Assembly: GCF_009177065.1 (NCBI RefSeq)
Contig: NZ_WEZF01000031.1
Location: 13,637-45,636 of the forward strand
Length of the DNA: 32,000 bases
Source of the DNA: Tautonia marina
GTDB lineage: Bacteria; Planctomycetota; Planctomycetia; Isosphaerales; Isosphaeraceae
Reading direction: 5' to 3'
Each line of letters opens with the position of its first letter. Within the stretch, counting starts at the first letter, position 1. The translations under genes and the position numbers were made by a program. The notes beneath the pieces were generated by a model that saw only the letters and a program-made list of their open reading frames with translations, did no database searches and was not told the DNA's origin. Below, one piece after another: positions 12,890 through 31,973 of the stretch.

Positions 12890-12954
12890 GGGCGATGCCC
12901 CCGCCTTTACCAAATCCAGGGGCATCCTAACGGCGAAAACCACCAAATCAAGCA

Positions 12955-15085: not shown

Positions 15086-15613
15086 TCATCGACTAAGTTT
15101 CGACGTTCGAGCTGCCTGGCCGCAATGCGGCAGCATCCCGCAGGGCCGGCACTGCGCAGGCTTCGGAAATACCCTGGCTGGCGTAGCCAGATCCTGCCGT
15201 ATGGCCCTGATCTGCTCGGCCATGCCAAGTACCTGAGCCCGAAGTGCCTCCGTGTTCTCGATGCGGCATCGCGTGCCGTCGCCAAGGACGATGAAGCCGT
15301 GCGACGGCCGGCGGCCGAGCCGGTCCTCGATGAGCAGGAAATACACGCCCATCTGAGCCCTGTGCCAGGGCCGAAGCGTTCGGGCGGATTTCCATTCCTC
15401 GGGGATGACGCTATCGCCCTGCCGGACAATCCGGTCGGGCCGGCCGGTGAGCCCGAGCCGCTTCGAAGTGAGCGTCACCTGGTCGAGCGAAACCGTGCGG
15501 CCTGCCTCAAGCCCGGCTTTCTGCCGCAGCCCTCTGCCGGCCCGCACCAGCAGAAGCCCAATACCGAGCAGGCAGAGGGCAAGCAGAAGCCCGAGCCAGA
15601 GGGGAAAGCTCAT
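15086..15613 (-). CDS. membrane-anchored Cas4/RecB-like PD-(D/E)XK nuclease, C-terminal piece (catalytic core + CX2CX5C)
   Basis: N-terminal TM helix (SFPLWLGLLLALCLLGIGLLLV). Then GLTGRPDRIV..VIPEEWKS (D..ExK), QMGVYFLLIE (QxxxY), and a C-terminal CRPCGMLPHC cysteine cluster. ATG 15613 overlaps the upstream stop as ATGA. A GTG at 15619 is also possible. Confidence 0.7.
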   Translation of the reverse strand: MSFPLWLGLLLALCLLGIGLLLVRAGRGLRQKAGLEAGRTVSLDQVTLTSKRLGLTGRPDRIVRQGDSVIPEEWKSARTLRPWHRAQMGVYFLLIEDRLGRRPSHGFIVLGDGTRCRIENTEALRAQVLGMAEQIRAIRQDLATPARVFPKPAQCRPCGMLPHCGQAARTSKLSR

Positions 15614-15867
15614 CGCCACAATGTCCAGAGCAGCACCAGGGCCGCCAGCAGCAGGGCACAGCCAGCCAGCACCCAGCCCAGGCCGATCGACGAGCCGGCG
15701 ACCGCCTCGACGGCGGCCTTCCGCTTATGGTACCGGGTTCCGGCCTGCATCTCCCGCCGGTTCGCCGGCGGAAGCCTCAGGCCCTCTTGCAGACGCCATT
15801 GCTCCGGGCAGTAGGCGAAGCTGGCGATTTCATGGGCAGAGATTAATTCTGTCACAACTTCCGCCAC
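15610..15867 (-). CDS. small membrane protein carrying the Cas4-type N-terminal cysteine motif (N-terminal piece of a split Cas4-like nuclease)
   Basis: GTG start, 3 nt after the PIN-like stop. ISAHEIASFAYCPEQWRL..MQAGTRYH resembles the Cas4/DUF83 N-terminus (first Fe-S cysteine plus the G..H motif). A TM helix follows (IGLGWVLAGCALLLAALVLLWTLW). Confidence 0.55.
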   Translation of the reverse strand: MAEVVTELISAHEIASFAYCPEQWRLQEGLRLPPANRREMQAGTRYHKRKAAVEAVAGSSIGLGWVLAGCALLLAALVLLWTLWR

Positions 15868-15870
15868 TGT

Positions 15871-16905
15871 TTAAGTGTAAAGCTCATCCCATTCATCACC
15901 CAAAATCCAGCGAATTGCGGAGAGCTTTCCATTTATCATTCCCCATTCAAAATTATCCCAAGGACCGAGGTTTTCCAATCCGTATTTCGCTTCCAATTTT
16001 CGAGCTGACTCCAATGCCCCTTCCCAAATATCACGTTGAATCGGCCGCTCTTTACCAGCGATTGAAGGGAATGTTTCTCTTTCAACAAGTTCAATTTCAC
16101 CTGATTCTATTTTTTCTCGACGAACCATATGACGATTATACCAGACTTTATCGCATAGCTCGCCCTCGGCTTCGATTAGCTCAGAAAGCGATCGTTGCGG
16201 CTGCTCCCACTCGCCCAGTTCCGCCATTAGCTCAGAAACTAGATCAGGCCGCACCATACGCAATGCGTCGCCAATGTTAATAAAGTAATTTGAATTTCTC
16301 TTGGAAAAGAATTCCGCGATGTCAGGGTGAGCTTCATTGTTGTTGACTGATGTATTACTAAAATCGTTGTGATTGTTGGTCACAAAGGCAAATCGATGCC
16401 CAGCCGACTCCTGCCCTTGAACGCATTCACCATAGATTTCGATGATAACGGCATCGCCGGTGCTGTTCTTTTTGCCGTGGAATGGAGCTTTGACCTGCAA
16501 CGCTCGGTCAATAACACGAGACTTCACCGGCTCGCTTACTTCTAAAATGGCCGCAGTTTTGAATAGTTTTTCAATTCTCGTCATCGATTCGGCGACGGCA
16601 TCCCCTAGCGTCGGAAGCCGGTGGTCAATGTCGTTGAGTTGCTCCAGCACCTCTCTCTTTGAGCTTGCATCGCCGTACTTGTCCACAGCGTCTTTCACCC
16701 GCTTGAACACGCTGGAGAGGCTTTTCCGGCTGTCATCGATGATCCGCTGGCGGTTTCTCTGAAATTCATCGATGACAACGGCAGGCAGAAGGATTCCGAC
16801 TTCTTGCCGTTTCACAAGCTCCTCCAGAACGCTCAGCAATAGCTGTTGCTGAGGCTCCTTCGCCATGTTCAGCCAGACATCAGTATCTGCCATGATTTTG
16901 AACAT
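15871..16905 (-). CDS. PIN-like domain protein (344 aa) with uncharacterised C-terminal half
   Basis: ATG 16905 lies 2 nt after the MmeI-like stop. The longer ORF to 17007 would overlap that gene. The spacing of acidic and polar residues fits a PIN-like fold: IMADTDVWLN .. VVIDEFQRN .. STGDAVIIEIY .. FAFVTNNHNDF. G+C is low (line 16081-16140 hand count 19/60). Confidence 0.6.
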   Translation of the reverse strand: MFKIMADTDVWLNMAKEPQQQLLLSVLEELVKRQEVGILLPAVVIDEFQRNRQRIIDDSRKSLSSVFKRVKDAVDKYGDASSKREVLEQLNDIDHRLPTLGDAVAESMTRIEKLFKTAAILEVSEPVKSRVIDRALQVKAPFHGKKNSTGDAVIIEIYGECVQGQESAGHRFAFVTNNHNDFSNTSVNNNEAHPDIAEFFSKRNSNYFINIGDALRMVRPDLVSELMAELGEWEQPQRSLSELIEAEGELCDKVWYNRHMVRREKIESGEIELVERETFPSIAGKERPIQRDIWEGALESARKLEAKYGLENLGPWDNFEWGMINGKLSAIRWILGDEWDELYT

Positions 16906-16907
16906 TA

Positions 16908-19754
16908 TCAGCTCACATTCACGCAGTCTTCGGTGATGAACGCCGCCGCATCCTTGACCGAAGGCGGAAGCCCCGGCCCGACCACCGGCCGCATGCTCTC
17001 CTCGCAATCGGCCAGCTCAGCATTCAGGCTGAGCAGGAAGGCAAGCGGATCGTCCTTGGCTTTCATGCCGTAGGCAGCACGGACAGCGCCATCAAGTTTG
17101 TCTTGTGCTGCTGTCAGCGGGTTACGACCGGGCACGTCGAGGGTCCGATACAGCTCCCGGAGGCTCCAGCCGTTCTCTTCCATAAGGCGGCTCCGAAGCT
17201 GGCGCAGTGCGACGGAAGCAGCGGCCACCTGCTTTACCTGCGTGAGCGAGGGGGATTGGGGCCATGGGAATGTATCAAATACGGTATCCGAAGTGTATCG
17301 GAAATCGCCCTTCAGCGTAGAACACCGGGCAACAAACCACGCCCAATGGATGTTCGACTGAAGAATTCCGAATGAATAATCGTCCGCCAGAGAAAACACC
17401 TGCAAGGCATCGTTCGGGTGTATCCTCGCGTCGATGAATGAAAATATCGGACGCTTGGTCACCCTGGCGCACCCTATGTAACGCGGAAGAGTCGCCAGGC
17501 GATCAATCATCTCGGGGCGGCCTCTCCAGTATTTCCACCAACGCTGATAATGGTTTTGTCGCGGCCCTTTATCTTTGCCTGTCGCCTCCCGCTCTTTCTC
17601 GGCATTCTCTTTCATAGTCGGCATGACGTATGTTCTGACGTGCTCAAACGCTTTGCCATGCTTCATTGCGCCAATCAGGTCATCGCAATGGTTAAGATCG
17701 ATGGCATAGCGGGAGGGTGCCCCATGCGTCAGAAGATCATCGCCAGTCAGGTAAGGATGGATGACATTCTTCGAGGCAGGGTCTTTCGTTAGCTCCTTCG
17801 CTGCTTCCTCCGTCAGCAGGAACCCTTCGTTTCCGTGCGTCTGCCCCTGATAACATGCTCCGGAGTCAATGTTGGCTTGCAGCCTTTCAGCCTGCGTTAC
17901 ATCATGCGACGCGGAAAGAGCCGGTCCAATCCGGTCAACCTCGACCACTTCCCACGGGCTGTCTCTGTTATCGCCAATCTGCGTAAAGAGCTTCTTTTTC
18001 CCCTCAGCATCGCCCTTCACCCAATTTGCTATGGACACATGAACGACAGCATCGCCCGACCATACCTGACTTGAGACAGCCTCAGTAATCGTTCCGCCAT
18101 GGCCGACGATGTAATCGAGCCCCCCCTCTCGCGAATAGTTTTGCCGGATGGTATTGGTGCCGACCAGGCCGGCGTGCCCGCCCTTCGGCAGCTCGTCATG
18201 CGCCCGGCGAAACCAATAGACGCAGTAATCTGCCCGGCCCGGCACCTCAGGATAACGATCGCGCACCTTTTCTACATATTCGTGGCCGTACTCCTGCTGC
18301 ATTTTGTTTTTCGACTGATAGGGCGGATTCCCGACGATGGCCTGGGCTTTCGGCCATTTGCAGAACAGTGCGTCCTCGCAGATGATGTTTGCGTCGAGGT
18401 TGTCGAGCGGCAGGGCCGCATCGAATTCGATCGGCAGGTCGAGCTGTTCAGAGTCGATCCACGAACGGCTTTCGTCGATGGCCAGCTCCTTGGCGAGCAT
18501 AAGCGTCACCTTGGCCAGCTCGACGCCGAAGGCGTCTTTCTCGATGCCGAAGAATTGCTTTGTACTCACCTGCGTGCGGGTGCCCACCGCCTGCTGAGCC
18601 CGGCGGCCGAACTCGGCATGAATCTTCGCCATCAGGCTCAGTTCCAGCCGAATCAGCTCCCGGTAGGCGACGTAGAGGAAATTTCCGCTGCCGCAGGCCG
18701 GATCGAGCACCCGGAAATCCCGCAGCTCTTCGAGTAGCTGCCGCAGGTCCTTCAGCGTCTTCGTGCTCTCGATGCGCTCCCGCCACGGCCGCACGATAGT
18801 CGGCAGCACAACCTTCTGGATGTCGGCTTCCGAGGTGAAATGCGCCCCGAAGGCGTGCCGGGCCTGCTTGTCCATGCTGCTCTGGAACAGCGTGCCGAAG
18901 ATGGGCGGCTGCACTTTGCTCCAGTTTTCTTCAGCCGCCGACTGGAGCAGGGTGATTTCGTCGTTCACCAGCTCGACCGGCTCGACCACCTGAAAGATGC
19001 CGCCGTTGAAGTAGCGGACGTTTTTGAACTTGCCGCCCCGGGCCGGCTCAGGGTTGTTCATCTGCCGGAACAGGCCCCCGATCAGGTCGTAGCTGCTCTC
19101 GCCGCCGAAGCAGTCGGCGAGCAGCTCGCTGAAGAGCCCGCGTGGCAGAAGCTCGGCATCCTCCGAGAACATGGCGACCACGCATTGCAGGGCGAAGCGC
19201 TGGGCCCGCGCCCGCGCCTCGCCACGGCCGACCATCGAGTTAAAGACGCGTGCCACCTTGTCAGCGGCCGCCCGCGTGACATCGACGCGGTTGTTGCCGA
19301 ATTGCGGCTTCCGGTCCTCGGGAAACAGGAAGTTGAGCGCCGTGTAGCGGTGCGGCAGCTCTTCGAGGGCAATCCGGTCTACCGGGTCGTTGAGCTGGGA
19401 ATCGAAATCGTAGATCCAGAATTCGTCGAAGTTGCAGAGGATGACGTAGCGGGGCCGCTGGGGCACCAGCTCCAGCCAGTATTCGAACGCCTGCGTGTAG
19501 TGCTGCTGGAGCTTCTCGCCGCGTTTCTTCATCTCCATCAGCAGCCGCGGCCGCCAGAGCAGGTCGGCGAATTTCGTGCTCTTGCCCCGGGCCTTGACGC
19601 GGAATTCGAGGGTGGCTCCGGCTTCCTTGTATCCGCCGTGTCCGAACGCCTGAAACAGCCGGTCGCAGAAGACCTGGGCCTCGCCTTTCTCATCGCCCCT
19701 CAGGGTGCGGGCATAATCGACGAAGGTGCGAATCGGCTCGACGGTCGTGCTCAT
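16908..19754 (-). CDS. MmeI-family type IIL restriction-modification enzyme (nuclease + gamma-class N6-adenine MTase + TRD in one chain)
   Basis: Collinear with MmeI as I recall it. N-terminal nuclease motif FADLLWRPRLLMEMKKRG (D..ExK). Also RYVILCNFDEFWIY, IFGTLFQSSMD, GAHFTSEADI, SAM motif VLDPACGSGNFL, FFGIEKDAFGVELAKV, catalytic IVGNPPYQ, LVGTNTIRQ, and YTSDTVFDTFPWP near the C-terminus. Confidence 0.85.
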   Translation of the reverse strand: MSTTVEPIRTFVDYARTLRGDEKGEAQVFCDRLFQAFGHGGYKEAGATLEFRVKARGKSTKFADLLWRPRLLMEMKKRGEKLQQHYTQAFEYWLELVPQRPRYVILCNFDEFWIYDFDSQLNDPVDRIALEELPHRYTALNFLFPEDRKPQFGNNRVDVTRAAADKVARVFNSMVGRGEARARAQRFALQCVVAMFSEDAELLPRGLFSELLADCFGGESSYDLIGGLFRQMNNPEPARGGKFKNVRYFNGGIFQVVEPVELVNDEITLLQSAAEENWSKVQPPIFGTLFQSSMDKQARHAFGAHFTSEADIQKVVLPTIVRPWRERIESTKTLKDLRQLLEELRDFRVLDPACGSGNFLYVAYRELIRLELSLMAKIHAEFGRRAQQAVGTRTQVSTKQFFGIEKDAFGVELAKVTLMLAKELAIDESRSWIDSEQLDLPIEFDAALPLDNLDANIICEDALFCKWPKAQAIVGNPPYQSKNKMQQEYGHEYVEKVRDRYPEVPGRADYCVYWFRRAHDELPKGGHAGLVGTNTIRQNYSREGGLDYIVGHGGTITEAVSSQVWSGDAVVHVSIANWVKGDAEGKKKLFTQIGDNRDSPWEVVEVDRIGPALSASHDVTQAERLQANIDSGACYQGQTHGNEGFLLTEEAAKELTKDPASKNVIHPYLTGDDLLTHGAPSRYAIDLNHCDDLIGAMKHGKAFEHVRTYVMPTMKENAEKEREATGKDKGPRQNHYQRWWKYWRGRPEMIDRLATLPRYIGCARVTKRPIFSFIDARIHPNDALQVFSLADDYSFGILQSNIHWAWFVARCSTLKGDFRYTSDTVFDTFPWPQSPSLTQVKQVAAASVALRQLRSRLMEENGWSLRELYRTLDVPGRNPLTAAQDKLDGAVRAAYGMKAKDDPLAFLLSLNAELADCEESMRPVVGPGLPPSVKDAAAFITEDCVNVS

Positions 19755-20795: not shown

Positions 20796-21287
20796 CTACT
20801 TCCCCGCGGCCTTCGCGGCTGCTTCAACCCATCCACCAAAGCCCAGGAAGCCATTGTCGGCAACCCACCGATACGTCGGAAATAATTGCGACATAGGAAC
20901 AAGAATGCTTCCCTGCTTGACCTTGATGTGATCGAAGGGATTCTGGCCTTGGTAATCTGTGCGGCCGTCCTGACCCTTAATTTCATGAACGTAGATACCG
21001 AACAGGCCGTTTCCACGTTCGTAGCTCTTCTCGATCTCGTACTTTACCCAGGGCCGTTGCCATGTCTCATAGCCAATGAGAACGGCGGTGACGGAAGTAC
21101 CAACGAGCCCGTCGTCGATCATCCTTTTGATAGCCGTATCGCCTTTCTTTTTGGCCTCCTCCCAGAGCGACCTGTCCCAATAGCCTCGGTTCTCGATGTC
21201 GGCTTTCGACTTACCGTGGTTCCGGACGATACTGGCACGCCAGATGTCACGGTCGTAGTGAAAGCTGAAGAATACTTTTCTGGCCAT
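20796..21287 (-). CDS. thsB: Thoeris ThsB, TIR-like (DUF1863-type) protein
   Basis: MARKVFFSFHYDRDIWRASIVRNH..SLWEEAKKKGDTAIKRMIDDGL..TSVTAVLIGYETWQRPWVKYEIEKS..YRWVADNGF aligns along its length with Bacillus cereus MSX-D12 ThsB as I recall it. AGGAGG lies upstream. It is immediately downstream of thsA. Confidence 0.85.
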   Translation of the reverse strand: MARKVFFSFHYDRDIWRASIVRNHGKSKADIENRGYWDRSLWEEAKKKGDTAIKRMIDDGLVGTSVTAVLIGYETWQRPWVKYEIEKSYERGNGLFGIYVHEIKGQDGRTDYQGQNPFDHIKVKQGSILVPMSQLFPTYRWVADNGFLGFGGWVEAAAKAAGK

Positions 21288-21316
21288 GAAGGGCCCTCCT
21301 GATGAAGTTCCGGACG

Positions 21317-22759
21317 TTAACGCCTCACCCGTTTGATAATGGCGAAGATAGCTTCAATAATATCATCGTTTGAACTTTTTTCATTACCTAATACTTTGAA
21401 ATTCGTTTTGATGCTGAACCCAGGATAATAGTCGTCGATGTTATCGTTTACGATGTTCCAGATTTCGCGGGACGCATGCCCTGTCGCACCAACGGGAATC
21501 GGATAGACCCCCAACTGCTTTGCAATTTCAAATTCCTGCATCACACCGCCCGCAAGCTCCGGCTTTCCCTCTCCATCCTGCTTGTTACCGCATAGGAAGA
21601 TGGCAAAGCCAGCCTTCGAGAGCATGTCACGCCGGTATTTCTCCCAGAAATCCTGGACTGTCATACCGGCCGGAGCATTTCCTTGTGGGAATGGCCTTAG
21701 CACCAACCGGTCATCAGCGTGAGTCGTGTCGTCCCGATAAACGGCCTCCATGGAACCGACAATGACGAAGCTGCCAATCCCCAATCCAAACCCTGATATA
21801 AGATTATAACCGTTATTTATTATTTCTTCGCCTATTCGACGAGAGAGCTTTTCGATTTCCTCCTGACCGCGTGGCGCATAGTCGAAAGCGCTACCTGAGA
21901 CGAAAATATCGTTCAGATGCACCCGCCGGTTCAGCTCCTTGAGAATGCCGGTAACCTCTGCATACTCATCCACGAGTATCGTTCTGATATTGTACCGGCC
22001 CAGGTCGTCGATTCGAAGCTGCTGCTTTCTTTGAGCGTATTCGTATTCCGCGAGTTGCTTTCCTCTGAGCCCTTTCCTTTTGGGCTCACGACGCATGATG
22101 CAGTAGTGGTCCCTGCCGGTACCGACCAAAACACGAATTCTACTAAGAATGTAATCAATATTAGGGTCAGTGAAACTGAATCCAAGAAACAGGAATGTCT
22201 TCGAAATTAAATCACTTTCAAGAACTTGTGTGAAAGCTTGCCGGGTCACATTGTACAGTTCGTAATCCTCTTTTGTGAGCACGGCGTTGTCAGGCGACGA
22301 TACATCTCCGTGCATTTTGTAGATCATCGCATCAACGCGCCGCTTCAATGGAACGAGGTTTTTTGGGTCGGTTTTAACCTCGACTCGCTTTCTGGCGGCT
22401 TCGTAGGCATTTTCGATAAGCTTATCGTAATTCGTCGTCCAGACCGTGCGGATAGGAAGGTTCGCGATCAGCTTGTGGTTCTCCGTCTGCCGCACATCCT
22501 CAGTGTATTCCTCAACCAGTTTGCGATTCAAAGTCGCACGTGTCCGGCGTTTGTTCAGGTGATATTGAGCAATAGCTATAAGGTCATACTCAATATCGAT
22601 GTCGAGGTGGAGATCGCTCGCAATCTCCCTCATCAACCCTTTCCAATCGACGAAACCGGCCGGCCGCGAGAGCCCTGCTCCGGCGAAAAGCGCAGCAGTT
22701 CCGTCCGTCAGAGACTTCACATAGTTATCATAAAATTCCGGAAGTCCAATTTCAGACAT
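21317..22759 (-). CDS. thsA: Thoeris ThsA, SIR2 (NADase) + SLOG domain protein
   Basis: SIR2 part: ALFAGAGLS..ENHKLIANLPIRTVWTTNYDKLIE..IYKMHGDVSSPDNAVLTKEDYE..FLFLGFSFTDPNIDYILSRIR. SLOG part: IFVSGSA..LISGFGLGIGSFVIVG..DRLVLRPFPQG..YRRDMLSKAGFAIFLCGNK..PIPVGATG. It is collinear with B. cereus ThsA. Confidence 0.9.
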   Translation of the reverse strand: MSEIGLPEFYDNYVKSLTDGTAALFAGAGLSRPAGFVDWKGLMREIASDLHLDIDIEYDLIAIAQYHLNKRRTRATLNRKLVEEYTEDVRQTENHKLIANLPIRTVWTTNYDKLIENAYEAARKRVEVKTDPKNLVPLKRRVDAMIYKMHGDVSSPDNAVLTKEDYELYNVTRQAFTQVLESDLISKTFLFLGFSFTDPNIDYILSRIRVLVGTGRDHYCIMRREPKRKGLRGKQLAEYEYAQRKQQLRIDDLGRYNIRTILVDEYAEVTGILKELNRRVHLNDIFVSGSAFDYAPRGQEEIEKLSRRIGEEIINNGYNLISGFGLGIGSFVIVGSMEAVYRDDTTHADDRLVLRPFPQGNAPAGMTVQDFWEKYRRDMLSKAGFAIFLCGNKQDGEGKPELAGGVMQEFEIAKQLGVYPIPVGATGHASREIWNIVNDNIDDYYPGFSIKTNFKVLGNEKSSNDDIIEAIFAIIKRVRR

Positions 22760-22792
22760 ACTTTAAATCCCGTGCACTCATAGCGATTCTAT

Positions 22793-23152
22793 TCAGCCAT
22801 AATACCGTGCAATCGAGGATGCCGCCATAAGCGTCTTCTGCAGATTCCAGGAAGCTAGGTCACATTGCTTTACCACCCAACCCTCCGGGTCCACCAGCTC
22901 CCGCAACTCGTATCCGACGCCGATACGCTTCCGGGCGGTACCCCGCCGCCTGAGGCTCTGCCGCACCAGCCTCCGCGCTTCCGCTTCATCCCGGGCCAGA
23001 TAGCGGATGGTGCGCCCCCTCGCCCCGATGCGGCCATAGGTCACGTCAACCAGCCAGGTGCCGAACAAGTCGGTGCCCGCTTCGAGCCGGTAAGCACGGT
23101 AGCGGCCGCGTGCCGGATCGCACGCTTCGAGGGTGGCGGCAAAGACGTTCAT
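22793..23152 (-). CDS. small WGR-domain protein
   Basis: ATG 23152 has GGAGG ~11 nt upstream. The WGR core is RYRAYRLEAGTDLFGTWLVDVTYGRIGARGRTIRYLARDEAEARRLVRQSLRRRGTARKRIGVGYELREL. The C-terminal ~25 aa run into the lower-GC Thoeris islet. Confidence 0.7.
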   Translation of the reverse strand: MNVFAATLEACDPARGRYRAYRLEAGTDLFGTWLVDVTYGRIGARGRTIRYLARDEAEARRLVRQSLRRRGTARKRIGVGYELRELVDPEGWVVKQCDLASWNLQKTLMAASSIARYYG

Positions 23153-23200
23153 GGTCGGGTTCCCTCCCCTGCCCGGCAGCACGGCACCCCCTTCTCCTTT

Positions 23201-23230
23201 CGGTAAAGAAAACGAGGGTTTTCTTTACCG
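23201..23230. other. perfect 13-bp inverted repeat with 4-bp centre; candidate res site I / crossover site for the adjacent serine recombinase
   Basis: CGGTAAAGAAAAC-GAGG-GTTTTCTTTACCG. The geometry (12-13-bp arms, 4-bp spacer) matches Tn3/gamma-delta res site I. The AAAAC..GTTTT core resembles hix/gix sites. It lies 138 nt upstream of the recombinase ATG. Further GGTAAAG / TGTAAAG-containing sequences occur at ~23272-23313. Confidence 0.45.
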
Positions 23231-23367
23231 CAAGCCGGAGGCACCCTGCCCGATCGATTTTCCTTGCCTTTTGGTGTAAAGTAAGTCAGTCAGGAAATCA
23301 AGGTAAAGTTACGGCAGCTTGCGACGAGTTTCTTATCGATTTGCCGCGATTACATGGGATTTGGTTT

Positions 23368-23931
23368 ATGAACATTGGCTACGCACGGGTTTCGACCCTG
23401 GAGCAGAACCTCGACCTCCAGCAGGATGCGCTGAAGGCGGCAGGGTGCGAGAAGATCATCGTCGACAGGATGAGCGGTACCCGCCGCGACCGCGCCGGCC
23501 TGGAGCAGGTGAGGGAGCAGCTCCGCAAAGGGGATGTGCTTGTGGTCTGGCGGCTCGACCGGCTTGGCCGGTCGCTCAAGCACCTCATCGAGCTGATGAG
23601 CGAGCTGGAGGAACAAGGGATCGGTTTCAGGAGCGTGACCGAAGCGATTGACACCACGACTCCCGGGGGAAAACTCATCTTCCACATCTTCGGGGCGCTT
23701 GCGGAATTCGAGCGGAACCTGATCCGGGAGCGGACCAAGGCCGGGCTGGAAGCGGCAAGGGCACGCGGCAGGCAGGGCGGCAGGCCGAAGAAGAAGGACG
23801 CGAAGCAGCGGGAACTGGCGGTTAGGCTCTACGAGGAAAAGAAACACGCGGTTAAGGAAATCTGTGCCATGCTCGGCATCAGCAAGCCGACGCTTTATGC
23901 GTATGTGCGGGAAAGTAGCCTTGTCCCGTGA
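23368..23931 (+). CDS. serine recombinase (resolvase/invertase family, Hin/Gin/TnpR-like)
   Basis: MNIGYARVSTLEQNLDLQQDALKAAGCEKIIVDRMSGTRRDRAGLEQV..GDVLVVWRLDRLGRSLKHLIELM..GIGFRSVTEAIDTTTPGGKLIFHIFGALAEFERNLIRERT..GRPKK.. plus a C-terminal HTH (ICAMLGISKPTLYAYV). The catalytic Ser is in YARVST. Confidence 0.9.
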   Translation: MNIGYARVSTLEQNLDLQQDALKAAGCEKIIVDRMSGTRRDRAGLEQVREQLRKGDVLVVWRLDRLGRSLKHLIELMSELEEQGIGFRSVTEAIDTTTPGGKLIFHIFGALAEFERNLIRERTKAGLEAARARGRQGGRPKKKDAKQRELAVRLYEEKKHAVKEICAMLGISKPTLYAYVRESSLVP

Positions 23932-23934
23932 CGA

Positions 23935-24165
23935 GCCAGGCCGGGAGCCGGCGGAGCCAATCCAGAGGCATCCAAGCGGGCAGGGGAAATGTCCAGACAA
24001 ATGGCGGCGGAGGCCTATTTTAACCTCGCTCCGAAGCTGGCGGAACTACGGGCGGAAGGGCTGTCGCTGCGGCAGATCGCCGGGTGGCTTAACGGTGAGG
24101 GGTATACGACACGGCGAGATATGCCGTGGAATCAGGTGCAGGTGAAGCGAGTGCTCGGGCGAGAC
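23935..24165 (+). pseudogene. remnant of the C-terminal (HTH) portion of a second recombinase-family gene, cut off at the AT-rich island boundary
   Basis: The translation ..AAEAYFNLAPKLAELRAEGLSLRQIAGWLNGEGYTTRRDMPWNQVQVKRVLGRD resembles the C-terminal DNA-binding tail of small serine recombinases. No catalytic domain precedes it. Similarity ends about where G+C collapses (~24165), after which the ORF reads through AT-rich sequence to 24252. Confidence 0.35.
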
Positions 24166-24223
24166 ATCTTGTATCAAATTAATACATATTTAAATGTTAA
24201 ACGAAATTCAAAATTGCTGAAGT

Positions 24224-24586
24224 TCACAATGGTCGATCCGCTCCCCTTTTAGGGAGAGGAGTCACATTTGGAACTATACTATCTGTAATCTGATGAGAAA
24301 CACCGCAGGATTCTTCTGGTGAAAGCTCGACTCGACTTGAGTCATTGCTACTGAATCCAGGATGATTATCAGTTTTGCCACCAAAAAGTTTTCTAGCAGC
24401 AATACTACCAATAATACCACCCGCAGCAAAACCAGCGAAGCCAATGGCCAAGGCGAGGTAAGAAGTAATGCCGATTCCGAGCATACCAAGGGTAAGAACT
24501 GCGCCCATACCTCCCACTACGGCCCCGAACATCATACCGGCGGATCCAAGAGCTTCAGCCCTCATGTTATGTTTAGTATTATTCAT
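24224..24586 (-). CDS. small glycine-zipper membrane protein (120 aa)
   Basis: GSAGMMFGAVVGGMGAVLTLGMLGIGITSYLALAIGFAGFAAGGIIGSIAA gives 2-3 predicted TM or glycine-zipper helices. It lies 9 nt downstream of the 853-aa gene on the same strand. AT-rich. Confidence 0.55.
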   Translation of the reverse strand: MNNTKHNMRAEALGSAGMMFGAVVGGMGAVLTLGMLGIGITSYLALAIGFAGFAAGGIIGSIAARKLFGGKTDNHPGFSSNDSSRVELSPEESCGVSHQITDSIVPNVTPLPKRGADRPL

Positions 24587-24595
24587 AATTGAATC

Positions 24596-27157
24596 TTAAC
24601 CAGTTCTCCTCAAATTGTCAAGCAGCTGCGGATCGATCAGCAAAGGGTTAAGCGGCCTTGGAGAACGACCCTCGGCAGGTTGATGCTGGATCTGTTGCAC
24701 AGCATCTGGATTCCAAATGCGTTCAAAACTGATTCCAAGGGATGAACCTCCAGGTATCGTAAATTCCTTGATCTTCCCTTGGCGTTCAATGACAAGGGAG
24801 ACGGTATTTGAGGTTTTTCCACTTTCCACAGCGTCGGCAACACAATCGCAAGTATAATGCAAACAGTACAAATTATTTTTATTGTATTCTTTAATATAAT
24901 CACCGGGTTCAATTCCAAGCCTTTCAGCAAGACTCCCGCTACGAATTGAAGTAACGATTGGTCTATAACTTTCGAAAGCTAGGAATCGGTAACAAAAAGT
25001 ACTATCTTCACGGATGGCTTGACGCTCGGAATCAATATTATCTGCCCAGTGTCCTGGCAATACCGCCTGAGCGTAAGTCAGGATGCCCGCGAGATTGGGA
25101 CCCCCTGTGTAGAATTCTTCGCGACGATCCATCGGATTCCAAGCGATCATGTCGCTCGAAACATACCAATCGCCATCCAATCCACGATGGACAGCCATGG
25201 TAGTGTATCGATTTGTGGTTATTTCGTGTGTTTGCATCAGGGCCGTCTGCCCTTGTGCAAGCTCGCTTCTTATGTAGGTGGTATTGGCTGCATGGGACTT
25301 GCCACTAATGTGGGCGGCTACATCCCTGAGACGCTTCAGATCTTTGCTTTGCTCTCCGAAATGAAGTTCATCTACTTTGTATAAATGATATTTAAATTCA
25401 AAATTTCCTATTTTGTAACATTCATTATCATTAAGATGTGCCTCAGAGTATGCTGCAGCAAAATCGTGATCGTAGTCCGTCTCCCGGCACTTGGTGAGCC
25501 TAGTGCTGCTCGTTCCAACCTCTGGACACGGGAGCCCGACCTTGAAGTCAACTTGACTGCCTGCGAGAATGCCATCAGTCCACAGCAACTTGCTGAAGCA
25601 CGGATCTTCCTGTCCCTCGTTCCTGTTACATTTATACTCAAACATAATGTCAATGTCATGTATATCGTACATGCTATTGTTTTTGATGGTTGCAGTATCG
25701 TCACCAAGAATCGCGCGAGAAACATCAATTGAATGCTTCGGATAAACAATATGATAATATTCCATCACCCTCCAATATCTGGTTGCATGCATTCTTGGGT
25801 CATCGAACACCCAAGATGTGGTGGCAAACCCATGGTTGTAAGCGTGCTGAAGCCATTTTAATGAGCTATCCAAGTTTCCCCGTCTGGACATAACACACGA
25901 GTAAAAATACGCGAAATATTTGTCATTACGCATTTCTTCGAGTGCCTGGTTGGCGTAGCGAAGTGCCGATGCGTGGTCATCGACTGCCAAGTAACAAGAC
26001 GCGAGTCCAAATCTTACATCAGGCAAGTGCTTGTTAGTAGAAGGGTTATCATCCAAATCGACGAGTGCCTGAAGAGCCGCTCGATTAATCCTAATTGCAT
26101 CATCGCGAATGCCATCTCTCTGAAGAGTTCCCACCTCGCGAAATCTAATGCTAGCCGCTGAGGAGGCATAGGACGCTGCGACGGCGAGGAAGCCTGCACG
26201 AACTGAGTCGAATACCTCTGCGCTCGGAACAAGCGAGGCCGCACGTTCGCACTGTAAGGCTCGATGCATGCGCTGGTATGCAGATTCATCTTCATCGCTT
26301 CTGGACAGATCTCCAGCATCTGCCATCAATGCGAATGGGTTCTCCCACCGCATTTCCGAGTTAGGGGAGAAATGTAAGCGTTCCTGATAACCAGTGATCT
26401 TCTCCCAGCCAAATTGCTCTGCCAGCACTTTCGTCGACTCTTGAGTTCGAATATAATTTGAAGTAAATTTGTTGTTTAATCGCCTTGCCATGTTTTGAAG
26501 TGTTCTGCGTTTTTCTTCATCCATTTTCTCCAGGGCTACACGATTTGCGTTTGATTCCGCCAAGCCAGAGGCAACGCCTACAATGACTCCTCCCGTAAGT
26601 GCCAGTGCAGTGACCGGCGCTGCTGCCACTGCAGTCATACCAAAGACCGCAGCGGTGCCGACACCAACAGTTCCTGCCATTTTGATAAATGCAGTTGCTT
26701 CCATGCCGCGTCCAATTGCGTCAATAGCAATTGAAGTACCATCGTTTGGTTTATGCCCGGTAATATGTATAATCCCTGCCATATCTAAAAATGCATAATA
26801 CTCGTTAATGAGGCTTTCGCATTCGCTATATAAAGTTATAATTTCTCTGTCGTATTTATCGATTGGTCTGGTGTGACCAATGATCCCACCTAGCAAGTTA
26901 TAATTTCCCCTGAGCCAATCCTCGAGTACCACCGCATCTGCTTCGGATGAAGGCCAAGTTCTGTACATATGGTCCAAGAAATAGAGCATAAAACACGATT
27001 TGTATTCAATACTGTTTTTATCAATACTGTCTTTAGTTTGGACTGCAGTCGCCACGGGGAGAGCGGCATTCGCTGAGTGAGCGATGCAGAAGAACCCAGT
27101 GATAATGATCACAACCATCAGGGCAAAGTTAGGAACGAATTGGCGAAATATTTGCAT
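24596..27157 (-). CDS. large envelope protein (853 aa): signal peptide/TM, glycine-zipper TM hairpin, TPR-like helical region, C-terminal PDZ-like domain; no family recognised
   Basis: ATG 27157 is chosen because MQIFRQFVPNFALMVVIIITGFFCIAHSANA|A is signal-peptide-like. The 90 codons upstream in the 943-aa ORF are R/G-rich high-GC read-through. Central hydrophobic stretch: GTVGVGTAAVFGMTAVAAAPVTALALTGGVIVGVASGLA. TPR-like: ASALRYANQALEEMRNDKYFAYFYSCVMSRRGNLDSSLKWLQHAYNHG. PDZ-like: IVTSIRSGSLAERLGIEPGDYIKEYN..VSLVIERQGKIKEFTI. Very AT-rich (line 25381-25440 hand count 11/60 G+C). Confidence 0.65.
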   Translation of the reverse strand: MQIFRQFVPNFALMVVIIITGFFCIAHSANAALPVATAVQTKDSIDKNSIEYKSCFMLYFLDHMYRTWPSSEADAVVLEDWLRGNYNLLGGIIGHTRPIDKYDREIITLYSECESLINEYYAFLDMAGIIHITGHKPNDGTSIAIDAIGRGMEATAFIKMAGTVGVGTAAVFGMTAVAAAPVTALALTGGVIVGVASGLAESNANRVALEKMDEEKRRTLQNMARRLNNKFTSNYIRTQESTKVLAEQFGWEKITGYQERLHFSPNSEMRWENPFALMADAGDLSRSDEDESAYQRMHRALQCERAASLVPSAEVFDSVRAGFLAVAASYASSAASIRFREVGTLQRDGIRDDAIRINRAALQALVDLDDNPSTNKHLPDVRFGLASCYLAVDDHASALRYANQALEEMRNDKYFAYFYSCVMSRRGNLDSSLKWLQHAYNHGFATTSWVFDDPRMHATRYWRVMEYYHIVYPKHSIDVSRAILGDDTATIKNNSMYDIHDIDIMFEYKCNRNEGQEDPCFSKLLWTDGILAGSQVDFKVGLPCPEVGTSSTRLTKCRETDYDHDFAAAYSEAHLNDNECYKIGNFEFKYHLYKVDELHFGEQSKDLKRLRDVAAHISGKSHAANTTYIRSELAQGQTALMQTHEITTNRYTTMAVHRGLDGDWYVSSDMIAWNPMDRREEFYTGGPNLAGILTYAQAVLPGHWADNIDSERQAIREDSTFCYRFLAFESYRPIVTSIRSGSLAERLGIEPGDYIKEYNKNNLYCLHYTCDCVADAVESGKTSNTVSLVIERQGKIKEFTIPGGSSLGISFERIWNPDAVQQIQHQPAEGRSPRPLNPLLIDPQLLDNLRRTG

Positions 27158-27231
27158 CGCTGATATCTCGGGTGAGACATTTGCTGGCCTAGTGGAAAAA
27201 ATATCAGCATCTGATACAATCTTAGCATCTT

Positions 27232-27387
27232 TTACATCTCGCCACTGCCTGCGGACTCCTGTGCATCGATTGTGATGGCATCGGGGGGCGGCGCTTCTTC
27301 CGGAGGCGACCCTCCATTCGAACAGCCGGCGAAAGAAACCATGAAAATTGATGCAATCACGCAATGGAACACCCGTGCCCAATTCAT
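27232..27387 (-). CDS. mini-lipoprotein (51 aa)
   Basis: MNWARVFHCVIASIFMVSFAG|CSNGG is a signal peptide plus lipobox. GGAG lies 8 nt upstream of ATG 27387. It is the 3' part of the 181-aa ORF 27232-27777, whose upstream part is R/G/A-rich and antisense to the next CDS. Confidence 0.5.
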   Translation of the reverse strand: MNWARVFHCVIASIFMVSFAGCSNGGSPPEEAPPPDAITIDAQESAGSGEM

Positions 27388-27580
27388 CGTCGTCTCCAAG
27401 AATAGATCGGAGGGAGTGCTCTCCCAATCACCGGATGTTTCGCGGCCAATGACCGGAAGTGCGGTTGATGCTACCGGGCTCCTATTCCTATAGTCGAGTC
27501 CTTTCTCTGCCTTCATTCCCCATTCTTGCCAGTTTTTCCCGGCTCCGGCAGCGCCCGCCGGCTCCGTACCCGAGGCTCTT

Positions 27581-28666
27581 GTGCCACCAGCGCCAACCCA
27601 GTACCGGGCACTGACTGAAGACTTCCGGCTCTTTGCCGAACGTCTCGGCTGGCCGCCTGGGAAGCGGTTCCCCAAAGCCCTGAAGGATCTGGGCGGCGGC
27701 GACAAAGCAATCGTTGCCCGCATGAAGGAAGGGGCAGCCGTCCCTGAGAAATACATCCGCGCTCTGGTCGGCCTCATGCGGAATGAATCAACCCTGAGCG
27801 CCTACTTCACGGCAAAGCGTCTTGGCGGGATCGAAACGCTGACCGACGATGACATCATCGAGCGGATTGCCGGCCCCCTGACGCCTGCGCCGGCCCCTCC
27901 GCCTGAGAGCGAAGACATCTTCGACAAAGGAATCGTCGGTATTGCCGAAGTCTTCAGCCGCTTCGTCGGCAAGTTGGTCCGGGAAGGTACGCTTTGCCGC
28001 GATGAGAAAGATGTGGCCACGGCCGTCGCCATGATCTTCGCAACGGTCGGACGTCATGTCACCCGCGACGCTGCCCTGGCGGATGCGGAAGCCATCACCG
28101 CGGCCGAGGCCATCATCGGACTCAGCCGCGATGCCTATCTCGAACGGGCGGTCGCCTGGTGGCGGAAAGCACACTGGTCCATGGCCTTCGCCGTCGTGAA
28201 CCGTCAGCGGGTCGGATGCAGCTGCGTCCTCCCGCTTACCGACGATGCCTATGCGGCGGTCCGGGCAGGAAGACAGCTCGATTATGAACTCACGGCCGAT
28301 GACCTGGCGGTCCCTTCGCGGTCATTCCTCCTTGAAGCCGAAGCCGAGCGCTCGGACGCAGACTATCCCCAGATTCGCAAGCGTACAGGCCGGCAGCTCC
28401 ATACGCTGCTGTTGCAGGTGGCCAGGCTCTCCCTGCCTGAATCGCCGGTGCCCTACCTCGGATGCCCCATCCGCATCCTCAGCTTCGCCGGCACCCCGGT
28501 CAACAGGGCACGGCTCCTGAAGCTCGGCTTCCGCCCCACCGGCAACCGGCTGCCGGTCCACAACCTGGAAATCCTCGAACTCGATGACCAGGGAACCTCC
28601 TTCACCTCGCTCGCCATCGAAGGCTTGCGACGTAGAATCACCCTCGAAGGTGACGCGCGAATGTAG
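27581..28666 (+). CDS. hypothetical protein (361 aa), possible N-terminal HTH and C-terminal acyltransferase-like fold (weak)
   Basis: GTG start. The N-terminus ..FAERLGWPPGKRFPKALKDLGGGDKAIVARMKEGAAVPEKYIRALVGLM.. is HTH-like. The C-terminal ..RARLLKLGFRPTG.. recalls GNAT tails. It is divergent from the AT-rich module. The start codon is uncertain. Confidence 0.45.
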   Translation: MPPAPTQYRALTEDFRLFAERLGWPPGKRFPKALKDLGGGDKAIVARMKEGAAVPEKYIRALVGLMRNESTLSAYFTAKRLGGIETLTDDDIIERIAGPLTPAPAPPPESEDIFDKGIVGIAEVFSRFVGKLVREGTLCRDEKDVATAVAMIFATVGRHVTRDAALADAEAITAAEAIIGLSRDAYLERAVAWWRKAHWSMAFAVVNRQRVGCSCVLPLTDDAYAAVRAGRQLDYELTADDLAVPSRSFLLEAEAERSDADYPQIRKRTGRQLHTLLLQVARLSLPESPVPYLGCPIRILSFAGTPVNRARLLKLGFRPTGNRLPVHNLEILELDDQGTSFTSLAIEGLRRRITLEGDARM

Positions 28667-29555: not shown

Positions 29556-31028
29556 ATGGTTGCATGCATGAAGCCGATCCGGACCACAGAGCAGGAAACC
29601 TCACCCGTCCTCATGGGACGGGACGAGATGAATCTTGCCGAATTCCCGATCACGCTGCTTTCCGACCGTGCGCCCGAGGGCATGAAAACCCTCGTCTTCA
29701 AAGACCAGAACGGCACGCTCACCATCACCGGCAGCGACGCCTACGGCCTGCCCACCGCCGCCGACAGCGACGTTATCGTCGCGCTCATGTATCTCACCAA
29801 ACGGCAGACCGGCTTCCGCCGCGACGGCGACAACTCCCGGCAAATCAAAGTCTATTTCACCCGCTACGAGCTCTTAAAGCTGCTCCGCTGGCCGGACACC
29901 AAGACCTATTACCGCCGGCTCGATGAATCCCTGACCCGCTGGCAGGGCGTGCAGCTGCTCTACGATCGCTGCTGGTACGACCGCCAGCACAACATCCACA
30001 CCAGCGCCAAGATTCACATTCTCGAATCCGTTATCATCGTCGATAACGACGCCCGCAAGAAAGCGCGGGCGAGGGGGCAGACCGAGCTGCCGCTTTCCTT
30101 CTTCGTCTGGAACGGCATCTTCCTCGAGAGCTGCCTTGCAGGCAACCTCCGCGAGCTGAACCTCGATGAATATTTCGCGCTCAACAGCTCGATTTCGAAG
30201 CGGCTCTACCGCTTCCTCGGCAAGCGGTTCTACCTCCGGCCCGACTGGACCTTCGACCTGCATGAAATCGCCTTCGACCGGGTGGGCCTGAGCCGGAACT
30301 ACAAAGACGCCTCCAAACTCCGCGAGAAACTCTCCGGTGCCATCGCGGAGCTGGAAGCCATCGGTTTCCTGAAGCCTCTTTCCCGCGAGCAGCGCTACCA
30401 GAAGCAGGCCCGCGGCAAGTGGACCATCCGCTTCGTCCACCAGGGCGGCAAACCGCTCGCCGCTCCCGCCGCCGAGCCCCCCCCTGCACCGCCGCCGGCC
30501 GCCGATCCGCTTCCGCCGCTGGCTCAGGAACTCATCGCCTGCGGTGTGACCGAAGCCACCGCACGCGAACTGGCAGGCCAGCATCCGGCGGAGCACATCG
30601 AGGCCAAGCTCGACATCCTCCGCTGGCTGACCGAACGCAAAGACAAGCGCGTCGCCAAAAGCCCGGGCGGCTACCTCGTGGAGTCCATCCGGCGGAATTA
30701 TGCCACCCCGGCTGGCTACCAGCCGCCGGAAGAGCGACGCCGCATCGAGGAGAAGCAGAAGCTTCAGGCCCGCAAGGCCGAGGAGGAGCTGCGCCGCCGG
30801 CAGGAAACCCGGGAGCGTGAACTGGCGGAGAGCGACGCCGTCACCGCCTATCTGAAAGGGCTTTCTCCTGAGCAGCTCGAAGCCCACGACGCACGCTCAC
30901 GCGAGGAAGCGCCGGAAGAGGACCTCGCGCTCGAACGCGGCAATCACGCCCTCGCCCGGCTGGCCCGCACCAACCGCCACCGGCAATATGCGCTTAAGCT
31001 CCTGAAAGAACAGGGCCGGCTGCCGTGA
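29556..31028 (+). CDS. repA: plasmid replication initiator protein RepA (replication initiator protein A / RPA family)
   Basis: The N-terminal ..GRDEMNLAEFPITLLSDR.. motif is typical of RPA-family initiators. A proline/alanine linker follows, then a conserved C-terminal ..GVTEATARELA..SPGGYLVESIRRNYATPAGY.. module. It sits immediately downstream of the iterons. The start could be ATG 29568. Confidence 0.8.
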   Translation: MVACMKPIRTTEQETSPVLMGRDEMNLAEFPITLLSDRAPEGMKTLVFKDQNGTLTITGSDAYGLPTAADSDVIVALMYLTKRQTGFRRDGDNSRQIKVYFTRYELLKLLRWPDTKTYYRRLDESLTRWQGVQLLYDRCWYDRQHNIHTSAKIHILESVIIVDNDARKKARARGQTELPLSFFVWNGIFLESCLAGNLRELNLDEYFALNSSISKRLYRFLGKRFYLRPDWTFDLHEIAFDRVGLSRNYKDASKLREKLSGAIAELEAIGFLKPLSREQRYQKQARGKWTIRFVHQGGKPLAAPAAEPPPAPPPAADPLPPLAQELIACGVTEATARELAGQHPAEHIEAKLDILRWLTERKDKRVAKSPGGYLVESIRRNYATPAGYQPPEERRRIEEKQKLQARKAEEELRRRQETRERELAESDAVTAYLKGLSPEQLEAHDARSREEAPEEDLALERGNHALARLARTNRHRQYALKLLKEQGRLP

Positions 31029-31148
31029 TATTCGGTCTGGACGCAAAGCTGAAAGCGGGGTAAGAATGGTTCGAGCCTTACTTCAGGAGTTTCGCCCTAA
31101 GTGTATGGTAAACAACAAATTTAAGACAAATTGACCCGGCCAATCGCT

Positions 31149-31973
31149 ATGCCAGCTACCACAATCGCCATGCTGAACAAGAAGGGGGGCGTTGGAAAAA
31201 CATCCTCATGTTTTCACCTTGCCGGGGCCCTCGCGAAGCTGAAATACCGCGTCCTGCTCATCGACAACGACCCGCAGGGCTCGCTTAGCCGCGGATTCTT
31301 CGGCACCGAGGCGGTCGAATCGCTGCCCAAGGAAGCGACGCTTGCCGCGCTCTACGACGACGCGATACCGGCCGGGCCGGAGACGCTCATCGTCCAGACC
31401 GAATTTAAAAACATCGACATCGTGCCGACCTCGCAGGAATACGACCCGTACAACGTCAACCCGCCGCACACCGCCCCGTACGACTTCGAAGCGCTCCGGC
31501 ATTTCGTTGCCGGCACCGACGGCTATGACTTCATCCTCATCGACTCGCCGCCCAACCTCTATTTCTGCAGCTGGACGGCGCTCCTTGCCGCCGACTACGC
31601 CATCGTTCCGGTGCAGACGGAAGATTTCGGGGTGCAGGGCCTCGTTGACGTGAATCACGTCGTGAAGGAAGCCGTCACCTATAACGGCGACCTGAAGATC
31701 CTCGGCTACCTGATTACGATGTACGACAAGCGGCGGGCCACCCACCGTGACTATGCCGGGGACCTGCGCGAAGCCTTCCCGAATGCCGTCTTCGAGCAGA
31801 TGGTGCCGGATTCCGCCACCTTCACCGCTTCGCTCGTGCACCGTAAGCCGGTTTCCTTCTTCCGCCCGAAATCCGCAGCCGCGCTTGCCATGAAGGCACT
31901 CGCGGAAGAAATCATCGCCCGCACCAGCCGGGAGGCTGAAACGCCCGCCGAAAGGGTTACCGCTCATGGATGA
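31149..31973 (+). CDS. parA: ParA-family partition ATPase
   Basis: Deviant Walker A NKKGGVGKTS, LLIDNDPQGS, and Walker B FILIDSPPN. ATG 31149 is chosen within ORF 31131-31973, which opens with TTG. Confidence 0.85.
   Translation: MPATTIAMLNKKGGVGKTSSCFHLAGALAKLKYRVLLIDNDPQGSLSRGFFGTEAVESLPKEATLAALYDDAIPAGPETLIVQTEFKNIDIVPTSQEYDPYNVNPPHTAPYDFEALRHFVAGTDGYDFILIDSPPNLYFCSWTALLAADYAIVPVQTEDFGVQGLVDVNHVVKEAVTYNGDLKILGYLITMYDKRRATHRDYAGDLREAFPNAVFEQMVPDSATFTASLVHRKPVSFFRPKSAAALAMKALAEEIIARTSREAETPAERVTAHG

Follow-up and report, generated by a model that had tools for sequence, protein, structure and literature searches.

A low-G+C cargo block on a Tautonia marina plasmid and its predicted envelope protein, long-form member of a rare, unnamed family

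The DNA considered here, 32,000 nucleotides (nt) of contig NZ_WEZF01000031.1 that we name the window throughout, comes from Tautonia marina, a member of the planctomycete family Isosphaeraceae, in which it belongs to a contig of 46 kb. It carries, within a plasmid backbone, a block of foreign composition (24166..27231), the core of which is a minus-strand gene (24596..27157) for a protein of 853 amino acids (aa), annotated as 'hypothetical protein [Tautonia marina]', followed by a gene for a 120-aa membrane protein. The block reached this mobilisable plasmid by horizontal transfer, as cargo, and its large protein is, as far as the sequences tell, the long form of a rare, unnamed and usually stand-alone family of extracytoplasmic proteins that mobile elements often carry. 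Predicted to be exported through the Sec pathway, it has no recognisable enzymatic domain and appears to be built of modules that bind proteins or peptides. We tentatively favour for it, by analogy with TraT, its nearest precedent, the role of an envelope-level guard or exclusion factor carried as cargo of a mobile element, a reading to be taken as possible rather than probable.

The family became visible only through exhaustive comparison. A HMMER search (phmmer) of 1.84 billion cluster representatives at E<=1e-3 yielded 144 representatives matching the 853-aa protein, of which 51 reach E<=1e-10 and the best 4e-32, with matches that typically cover residues 50-505 of the query, whereas word-indexed searches, begun from the single protein or from a profile of 25 sequences, brought up nothing but the protein and some unrelated TPR proteins. 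The original prediction, made from the letters of the DNA, had spoken of an unknown family. The protein is thus no orphan, and what stands of that statement is that the family has no name: Pfam, NCBIfam, PADLOC and PHROG gave the protein no family-level assignment, and all the members looked up are 'hypothetical' or unnamed. Two motif-limited scans of 185k species genomes, one with an alignment of four family sequences and the other with the single protein, gave no confirmed match, the second missing even the source contig; among metagenomes, the alignment hit four short contigs only. In a few literature searches, we found no description of the family or of this combination of domains, and nothing relevant on glycine zippers in exclusion or defence.

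Members of the family are highly divergent, with about 25% identity and a size of about 520 aa (median length 531 aa). A typical member opens in one of three ways, with a signal peptide, with a lipobox, or with a transmembrane (TM) anchor that a longer head precedes. There follow, in this order, a helical N-domain, a Gly/Ala-rich segment of moderate hydrophobicity, a long helix that ends in GEAGFD...RPRDPF, helical repeats, and a β-sandwich with the motif NxSxFxLTN that ends in CDQ. The conserved motifs of the family are WP after helix 1, (RPR)DPF, VPxxxxYDxYR, DPDLxxxR and NxSxFxLTN. Four positions, W251, P311, R320 and A398, are invariant in the alignment; others (P274-F275, R460, N493/S495/F497) are nearly so and present in the query, in which the DExLF motif is degenerate. 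Similarity to the family core, the conserved motifs and an N-terminal export signal or anchor were all found in the 853-aa protein. Among the 75 members bearing the N-domain motif, a hydrophobic segment directly precedes it in 62, and 11 have a lipobox. Some long members (P0030, P0034, P0089, P0043, P0142 and P0121) are fused at their N-terminus to GYF_2, zinc-ribbon, DnaJ or Sel1 domains, an arrangement that suggests a head in the cytoplasm, an anchor in the membrane and the family module in the periplasm. Taken together, the upstream hydrophobic segments, the lipoboxes and these headed fusions indicate that the family module is consistently extracytoplasmic.

The ATG of the 853-aa protein is an internal start within a 943-aa open reading frame (ORF) that begins with TTG; the length of the NCBI protein and the N-terminal alignment of the family both back the ATG, and the TTG start, absent from the NCBI protein set, was rejected. 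Residues 1-31 (27065..27157, this and the following segments all being on the minus strand) make, according to hydropathy and direct reading, a Sec-type signal peptide or signal anchor with the h-region FVPNFALMVVIIITGFFCIA: residues 7-26 are hydrophobic, a cleavage motif ANA↓A follows, and the whole aligns with the N-terminal hydrophobic segments of relatives. The helical N-domain specific to the family (residues 50-135, 26753..27010; consensus DExLFLLRxLExxYxxWP) precedes a Gly/Ala-zipper hydrophobic hairpin of two helices, with Pro181 at the turn (residues 160-200, 26558..26680). Helical repeats with true TPR repeats and a TPR end-cap (residues 268-471, 25745..26356) lead to a small β-sandwich with the family motif, delineated by alignment and model (residues 475-540, 25538..25735). 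Beyond it lie a C-terminal extension, shared with one relative only, P0003 (residues 546-730, 24968..25522), and a domain that looks like a PDZ of the RseP/DegP type (residues 731-801, 24755..24967).

How far may this layout be trusted? Taken as a single sequence, the protein matches Pfam weakly, with PDZ_6 at E 3e-5 (24.0 bits for a cut-off of 27) and TPR_12 at E 0.002, also below cut-off. RseP PDZ chains of the PDB match it at E 5e-5, while the family profile detects consensus TPR proteins (E 7e-21) as well as the PDZ domains of RseP and DegP. An AlphaFold model computed with the 144-sequence alignment reaches a predicted local distance difference test score (pLDDT) of about 90 or more over residues 50-135 and 210-545 (about 90 in the N-domain, 90-98 in the repeats) and of about 80 in the putative PDZ domain, which displays a β/α pattern. 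Confidence is low over residues 138-200 and 546-730, with values under 50 in the hairpin and in the extension, and the single sequence alone gives a pLDDT of 33. The protein is therefore of the TPR repeat class, by profile match and helical-repeat fold, and residues 731-801 are very probably a PDZ domain, though below the Pfam threshold. A Foldseek search of the whole alignment-based model against the PDB and BFVD returned generic TPR scaffolds only, none at E<=0.001, so that the structural check proposed with the original prediction gave a confident core model and, as structural relatives, nothing more specific than these scaffolds. The signal peptide, glycine-zipper hairpin, TPR-like repeats and PDZ-like C-terminus that had been read from the translation are thus all recovered, the first two by hydropathy and direct reading, the others by profiles, PDB matches and model. 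The statement that no catalytic motif was to be seen holds as well: neither HExxH nor GDSGG occurs in the protein, and Pfam, NCBIfam and motif reading disclosed no enzyme family.

Two traits set this long form apart. The Gly-rich segment is enlarged to 41 residues, as two helices around Pro181, and its hydropathy of 1.99 is the second highest in the family, for a median (19-mer) of 1.22. The C-terminal extension, of some 300 residues with the PDZ domain at its end, is homologous only to that of P0003, a protein of 763 aa (26% identity over 209 residues, E 1e-13), the sole relative to share it in full, which is encoded beside conjugation genes, next to that of a type IV coupling protein (T4CP). 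Another member, P0004, carries two PDZ domains of its own, independently.

The genomic contexts of the family lean towards mobile elements. We inspected 12 of them: the window, L001, L002, L004, L005, L006, L007/8, L013, L014, L015, L016 and the P0045 contig. Seven show hallmarks of such elements, namely the window, L001 (transposase, fragmented T4CP, ParB), L004 (T4CP, ParB), L005 (integrase, ParE), L007 (transposase), L013 (integrase, HTH_17, AAA_25) and L015 (DUF3987). The backbones of L001 and L004 have no detectable similarity, and the association with T4CP and ParB is therefore independent in the two. Four contexts (L002, L006, L016 and the P0045 contig) look chromosomal, with LeuA, HisG, glycosyltransferases or Band_7 in the vicinity, and it is here that a more sober explanation has to be weighed: the protein would be an ordinary periplasmic scaffold, for instance an adaptor in envelope biogenesis or proteostasis, comparable to the TPR lipoprotein NlpI that works with the PDZ protease Prc; it would take no part in conflict and travel on the plasmid as a passenger. 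TPR and PDZ domains are indeed standard parts of periplasmic quality-control adaptors, and the members headed by DnaJ, GYF_2 or zinc-ribbon domains look like membrane scaffolds of the housekeeping kind. Yet a family so rare and patchy (144 representatives among 1.8 billion), with identities of about 25% and frequent integrase, transposase or T4CP neighbours, follows the pattern of accessory rather than core functions, and we hold this explanation to be rather unlikely.

Genes of conflict systems of the TIR type lie near the family gene in three of the 12 contexts: in the window, which holds Thoeris, and in L014 and L015. In L014 (1-7448), the family member has beside it a TCAD9/TPR-S protein and a 1664-aa kinase-TIR-nSTAND1-FGE-sulfatase protein; in L015 (2330-6792), a TIR_2-AAA_16 protein and a DUF4917 protein. 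L001 and L004 have in common, despite their unrelated backbones, the gene order T4CP, ParB, then, further on, a gene of the XRE-HTH type and the family gene. A small domain is shared there by XRE-HTH proteins of 306 and 335 aa and by solo ORFs of 67-73 aa (L001 4261-5586; L004 4869-5876 and 8507-8710), with blastp values of 5e-5 to 1e-3 and a weak match to Pfam TRADD-like_N (E 0.004); the window has neither this TRADD-N-like domain nor the XRE genes.

That the block is foreign can be seen from its composition. According to the G+C profile, it has about 46% G+C in a backbone of roughly 63%; the 853-aa gene has 46.3% G+C, with 0.45 at third codon positions (GC3), and the 120-aa gene 46.8% with a GC3 of 0.34, to be compared with 60-65% and 0.75-0.80 for backbone genes. 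Three hand counts that had first drawn attention to it (11/60, 27/60 and 41/60) were reproduced exactly. At 46-47% G+C, the expression 'very AT-rich' used at that time is valid with respect to the backbone and not in absolute terms. The left edge is sharp, at about 24165 (the fall begins at about 24160-24170), and a large serine recombinase, present as a remnant (23989..24165, plus strand), breaks off at the same place: in an 87-aa ORF (23989-24252, plus strand), residues 17-61 match positions 10-54 of the 102 positions of Pfam Recombinase (E 2e-7), and the match stops where G+C drops, which tells us that the recombinase was truncated there, as had been supposed. The right edge is a gradient, with 52-55% G+C over 27200-27500.

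Further to the left, in backbone context and outside the block, the serine recombinase announced by the original prediction proved to be a complete small serine resolvase, with Resolvase and HTH_7 domains (23374..23931, plus strand). Between Thoeris and the block stand a gene for a WGR protein, this intact resolvase and the recombinase remnant, so that we can understand the block as cargo that entered the plasmid between the resolvase and the replication region. The latter comprises a RepA-type initiator (29556-31028), with ParA (31131-31973) also in the window, and a TrwC relaxase is encoded at 9974-12946. The view of foreign cargo on a mobile element, near Thoeris and a resolvase, is thus borne out both by G+C and GC3 and by the genes of the window. 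A search for flanking repeats, either att sites or inverted ends, gave nothing convincing, and no discrete element could be delimited.

The original prediction went further, and proposed a module of three envelope-directed genes on the same strand. Two of them are real. The 120-aa protein (WP_152054218.1; 24224..24586, minus strand), predicted to reside in the inner membrane, begins 9 nt after the stop of the 853-aa gene. Its Gly-zipper hydrophobic region (residues 12-64, 53 residues) probably forms two TM helices and is followed by a polar tail of about 55 aa; there are basic residues on either side of this region, which suggests that both ends are cytoplasmic, and GxxxG/A motifs can be read directly in it as in the large protein. 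It has no Pfam match at E<=0.1 and no homologue besides itself among 5.8 billion clusters. From their 9-nt spacing and like composition, the 853-aa and 120-aa genes form a pair that we take as the sure unit of the block. A sigma-70-like sequence, TTGACA-17-TAAGAT with 10/12 matches (24593-24621, minus strand), lies at the end of the large gene, just upstream of the 120-aa start; such sites are no more numerous in the region than in shuffled sequences, and the same is true of promoter- and terminator-like sites in general.

The third gene is doubtful. The 51-aa ORF (27232..27387, minus strand) lies in the transition zone of the right edge and has an intermediate G+C of 56%. It would encode a mini-lipoprotein, with MNWARVFHCVIASIFMVSFAG↓C, a lipobox-like FAGC, and GGAG 6 nt before the ATG, but it has no WP accession, unlike its neighbours (WP_152054218.1 and WP_152054220.1), so that it was not called by the Prokaryotic Genome Annotation Pipeline, and its matches are all weak and cover the signal peptide and lipobox. 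A longer ORF of 181 aa (27232-27777, minus strand), absent from the NCBI set and overlapping an annotated 361-aa gene, was rejected as probably spurious. One of the matches of the 51-aa ORF is to an Rz-like spanin of PHROG (E 0.005), and the mature part is proline-rich; with a 120-aa protein that is small and has two predicted TM helices, one might see in the block the remnant of a phage lysis cassette, with a holin and an o-spanin. This idea, for which we retain hardly any credence, is largely refuted: there is no endolysin and no phage context, the spanin match spans essentially the signal peptide and lipobox, the 853-aa protein lacks a muralytic domain as well as any match in PHROG or BFVD, the 120-aa protein has none in PHROG, and the window holds no other phage gene. 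We therefore do not count the block among lysis cassettes.

The spacer of 74 nt before the large gene does contain the inverted repeat that had been reported, of 8 bp, or 11 bp with G-U pairs (27159..27208; GCTGATAT at 27159-27166 and ATATCAGC at 27201-27208). The repeat touches, by its 3' arm, the start codon of the 853-aa gene, so that it could occlude initiation of translation, but it is not statistically strong: an 8-bp repeat is found in 2.7% of shuffles of the spacer and in 3/81 comparable windows of the island, and the z-score of the RNA fold is -1.65.

As a module, the trio does not hold. The original prediction had stated that a trio never conserved as a unit would tell against it, and this is what we observed: across the 12 contexts there is no recurring partner gene, which, together with the 120-aa protein lacking homologues and the 51-aa ORF left un-annotated, leads us to conclude that the trio is not a conserved unit. 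This bears on another explanation, that of a bacteriocin-like cassette, where the 853-aa protein would form pores through its glycine zipper, the 120-aa protein would confer immunity, and the mini-lipoprotein would serve in release or lysis, on the model of colicin operons. The sizes and types of the genes loosely recall those operons, in which a large protein is accompanied by a small immunity protein with several TM segments and by a lipoprotein of about 50 aa, and the convergent small TM genes seen in L001 and L007 downstream of the family gene bring to mind the arrangement known from pore-forming colicins. A Sec signal in the large protein, and relatives that are lipoproteins or TM-anchored, would however make for a protein that is retained, not released; neither Pfam nor Foldseek linked it to a colicin or pyocin domain, its partner genes are not conserved, and the lipoprotein is upstream as well as doubtful as a gene. 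We regard such a cassette as very improbable. The small proteins of L001 (8302-8679, minus strand) and L007 (3499-3876, minus strand) are convergent, Gly-rich, of about 125 aa with two TM helices, and are encoded immediately downstream of the family gene; they are weakly alike, the L001 copy has a weak SLATT_1 match (E 0.0014), and their similarity to the 120-aa protein of the window is not significant.

Coming back to the surroundings of the block, we may ask whether the pair is an effector of abortive infection or of some other defence. The periplasmic TPR, β-sandwich and PDZ modules would sense a perturbation of the envelope (phage entry, exposed C-termini), and the hairpins of the 853-aa and 120-aa proteins would form a permeabilising channel, GxxxG zippers being typical of channel-forming helices. 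The cargo region of the block holds Thoeris together with a Cas4-like nuclease, a PIN protein and a restriction-modification (R-M) enzyme of type IIG; in L014 and L015, family members have TIR/STAND or DUF4917 genes at their side; and the small Gly-rich proteins of L001 and L007, one with its weak SLATT_1 match, lie just downstream. Nevertheless, none of the three proteins matches any family of PADLOC-DB v2, in the very search where ThsA, ThsB and the type IIG enzyme match strongly, and they cannot be counted as components of a known anti-phage system. The 120-aa protein has no SLATT or other match, the proteins of L001 and L007 are convergent rather than co-directional and have no counterpart in the other contexts, the Gly-rich helix of most members is short and weakly hydrophobic (the median of 1.22 already given), and known sensors of abortive infection are mostly cytoplasmic. 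An accessory role in Thoeris is discarded, as no Thoeris gene was found in the 11 other family contexts (L014 and L015 having other TIR genes only) and as other genes intervene in the window. The defence role that the original prediction had drawn from this neighbourhood is unproven, and not supported in the form in which it was stated; we think an effector of this kind unlikely.

We return to the guard or exclusion factor at the envelope, which is the most economical use that a mobile element could make of such a protein. The core of the block would be a two-gene operon, with the 853-aa gene first, the 120-aa gene 9 nt later, and the uncertain 51-aa ORF upstream. The large protein would be exported via Sec, its binding modules facing the periplasm, while the 41-residue hairpin would hold it at the membrane; were the hairpin a stop-transfer and re-insertion pair, both its flanks would remain periplasmic. 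The TPR, β-sandwich and PDZ modules may then bind envelope proteins or exposed C-termini, making of the protein an adaptor or guard that would interact with envelope components of the host or of an incoming element, to the benefit of the element that encodes it. In its most likely version this would be surface exclusion or superinfection exclusion, analogous to that of TraT. The 120-aa protein would be a lineage-specific partner in the inner membrane, with a hairpin that may pack against that of the 853-aa protein.

Several points weigh against such an exclusion role. No characterised exclusion protein is homologous to it: TraT does not match the query, nor is it among the Foldseek matches listed, although TraT structures are present in the PDB. 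The single-sequence PDZ and TPR matches fall under the gathering scores of Pfam. The hairpin combines a low-confidence model with moderate hydrophobicity, so that membrane insertion and topology are predictions, and the partnership of the 120-aa protein is drawn solely from the 9-nt spacing and common composition. The four chromosomal-looking contexts mean that the family is not exclusive to mobile elements, and the lean towards these, seen in raw counts (7 of 12 contexts), is suggestive only.

A bolder generalisation, which we consider doubtful, would see in the whole family a new single-gene determinant of envelope exclusion or defence, spread by the mobile elements of Planctomycetota-like bacteria. 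A periplasmic TPR/β-sandwich sensor, with or without PDZ, would be fused to a glycine-zipper element and would either block entry of incoming DNA or phage at the envelope or, once triggered, permeabilise the membrane, and the version of the Tautonia plasmid would be reinforced by its enlarged hairpin and its private glycine-zipper partner.

The rest of the window completes the picture of this plasmid. Its cargo belt comprises an SNF2-type helicase, an HTH-Dam methylase, the Cas4-like nuclease, the PIN protein, the type IIG R-M enzyme, ThsB and ThsA. The segments 15086-19754 and 20796-23182 contain the Cas4-like PD-(D/E)XK nuclease, PIN_12, the 948-aa type IIG R-M enzyme, ThsB, ThsA and the small WGR-domain protein, and several genes of the belt are also below the backbone in G+C, at 47-54%. 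Between the WGR gene and the resolvase lies an inverted repeat with arms of 24 nt, 83% complementary, and a loop of 4 nt (23190-23241), which may be a res-like site or a terminator. Divergent from the block, a 361-aa hypothetical protein (WP_152054220.1; 27581-28666, plus strand) has a backbone-like G+C of 63.5% and no match in Pfam, NCBIfam, PADLOC or PHROG. A second glycine-zipper ORF, of 168 aa (WP_201750321.1; 13953-14459, minus strand), occupies another patch of lower G+C and weakly matches Rick_17kDa_Anti 'Glycine zipper 2TM' (PF05433; E 2.5e-4). Rfam and tRNA scans of the window were empty, and PLSDB returned no match by blastn or tblastn, either for the query or for P0009.

Mobile elements and envelope organisation are both poorly understood in Planctomycetota. 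If the protein does act in exclusion or in defence, it would be a rare determinant that faces the periplasm and is not an enzyme, and it would be among the first functional handles on the plasmid biology of this phylum; if it is a passenger scaffold and nothing else, the finding is an ordinary one. In either case, annotation gains from turning an apparent orphan into a definable family, with a confident model of its core fold and contexts that lean towards mobile elements.

Among known systems, TraT (PF05818) of F-like plasmids offers the closest comparison. It is an exported lipoprotein anchored by an amphipathic α-helical barrel, whose chromosomal homologues have been repeatedly co-opted by plasmids (PMC11733297). 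Like TraT, the 853-aa protein is an envelope protein encoded on a conjugative or mobilisable element, predicted to be exported, with a β-sandwich and no enzymatic domain, and predicted to be held at the membrane by Gly/Ala-rich helices (amphipathic ones in TraT) rather than by a β-barrel; its family, too, has chromosomal relatives and repeated recruitment by plasmids. Two family members weakly match TraT over the Gly-rich region (E 8e-5 and 2e-3, below cut-off). The differences are no less clear, with about 245 aa for TraT against 853, and TPR and PDZ modules that TraT lacks. The 853-aa protein cannot be placed in the TraT family, for which it has no match at E<=0.1 and, unlike TraT, no lipobox, and TraT is not among the PDB matches listed by Foldseek.

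Other parts have their counterparts elsewhere. A zipper hairpin of the (G/A)xxx(G/A) type within an exported protein is found in Rick_17kDa_Anti, SlyB and Pcp (PF05433 clan), in which the hairpin is the whole protein, whereas here it is an insert in a multidomain one; the 120-aa protein, for its part, differs from these lipoproteins in having neither signal peptide nor lipobox, and neither protein matches the glycine-zipper families of Pfam (Rick_17kDa_Anti, Gly-zipper_Omp/YMGG) at E<=0.1. The 120-aa protein also resembles SLATT (PF18181) proteins, small, with two TM helices and encoded near SLOG/TIR systems, and the equivalent small neighbour of P0003 has a weak SLATT_1 match (E 0.0014); but it is not adjacent to ThsA, from which the WGR gene, the resolvase and the remnant separate it, and, devoid of Pfam matches and homologues, it was not retained as one of them. 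The predicted association of a periplasmic TPR scaffold with a PDZ domain binding C-terminal peptides is that of NlpI-Prc and of RseP, DegS and DegP, and RseP and DegP are indeed the best PDB sequence matches of the PDZ domain. The 853-aa protein differs from these in that no protease domain is found in it or in its neighbours and, unlike NlpI-Prc, in that a single chain unites the TPR and PDZ parts, to which a membrane hairpin and two further domains are added. As no function has been demonstrated, we rate it as a combination of known kinds of parts, not as a categorically new system: at most, by analogy, a helix-anchored envelope protein of the TraT or SlyB type fused to binding modules of the NlpI or RseP type.

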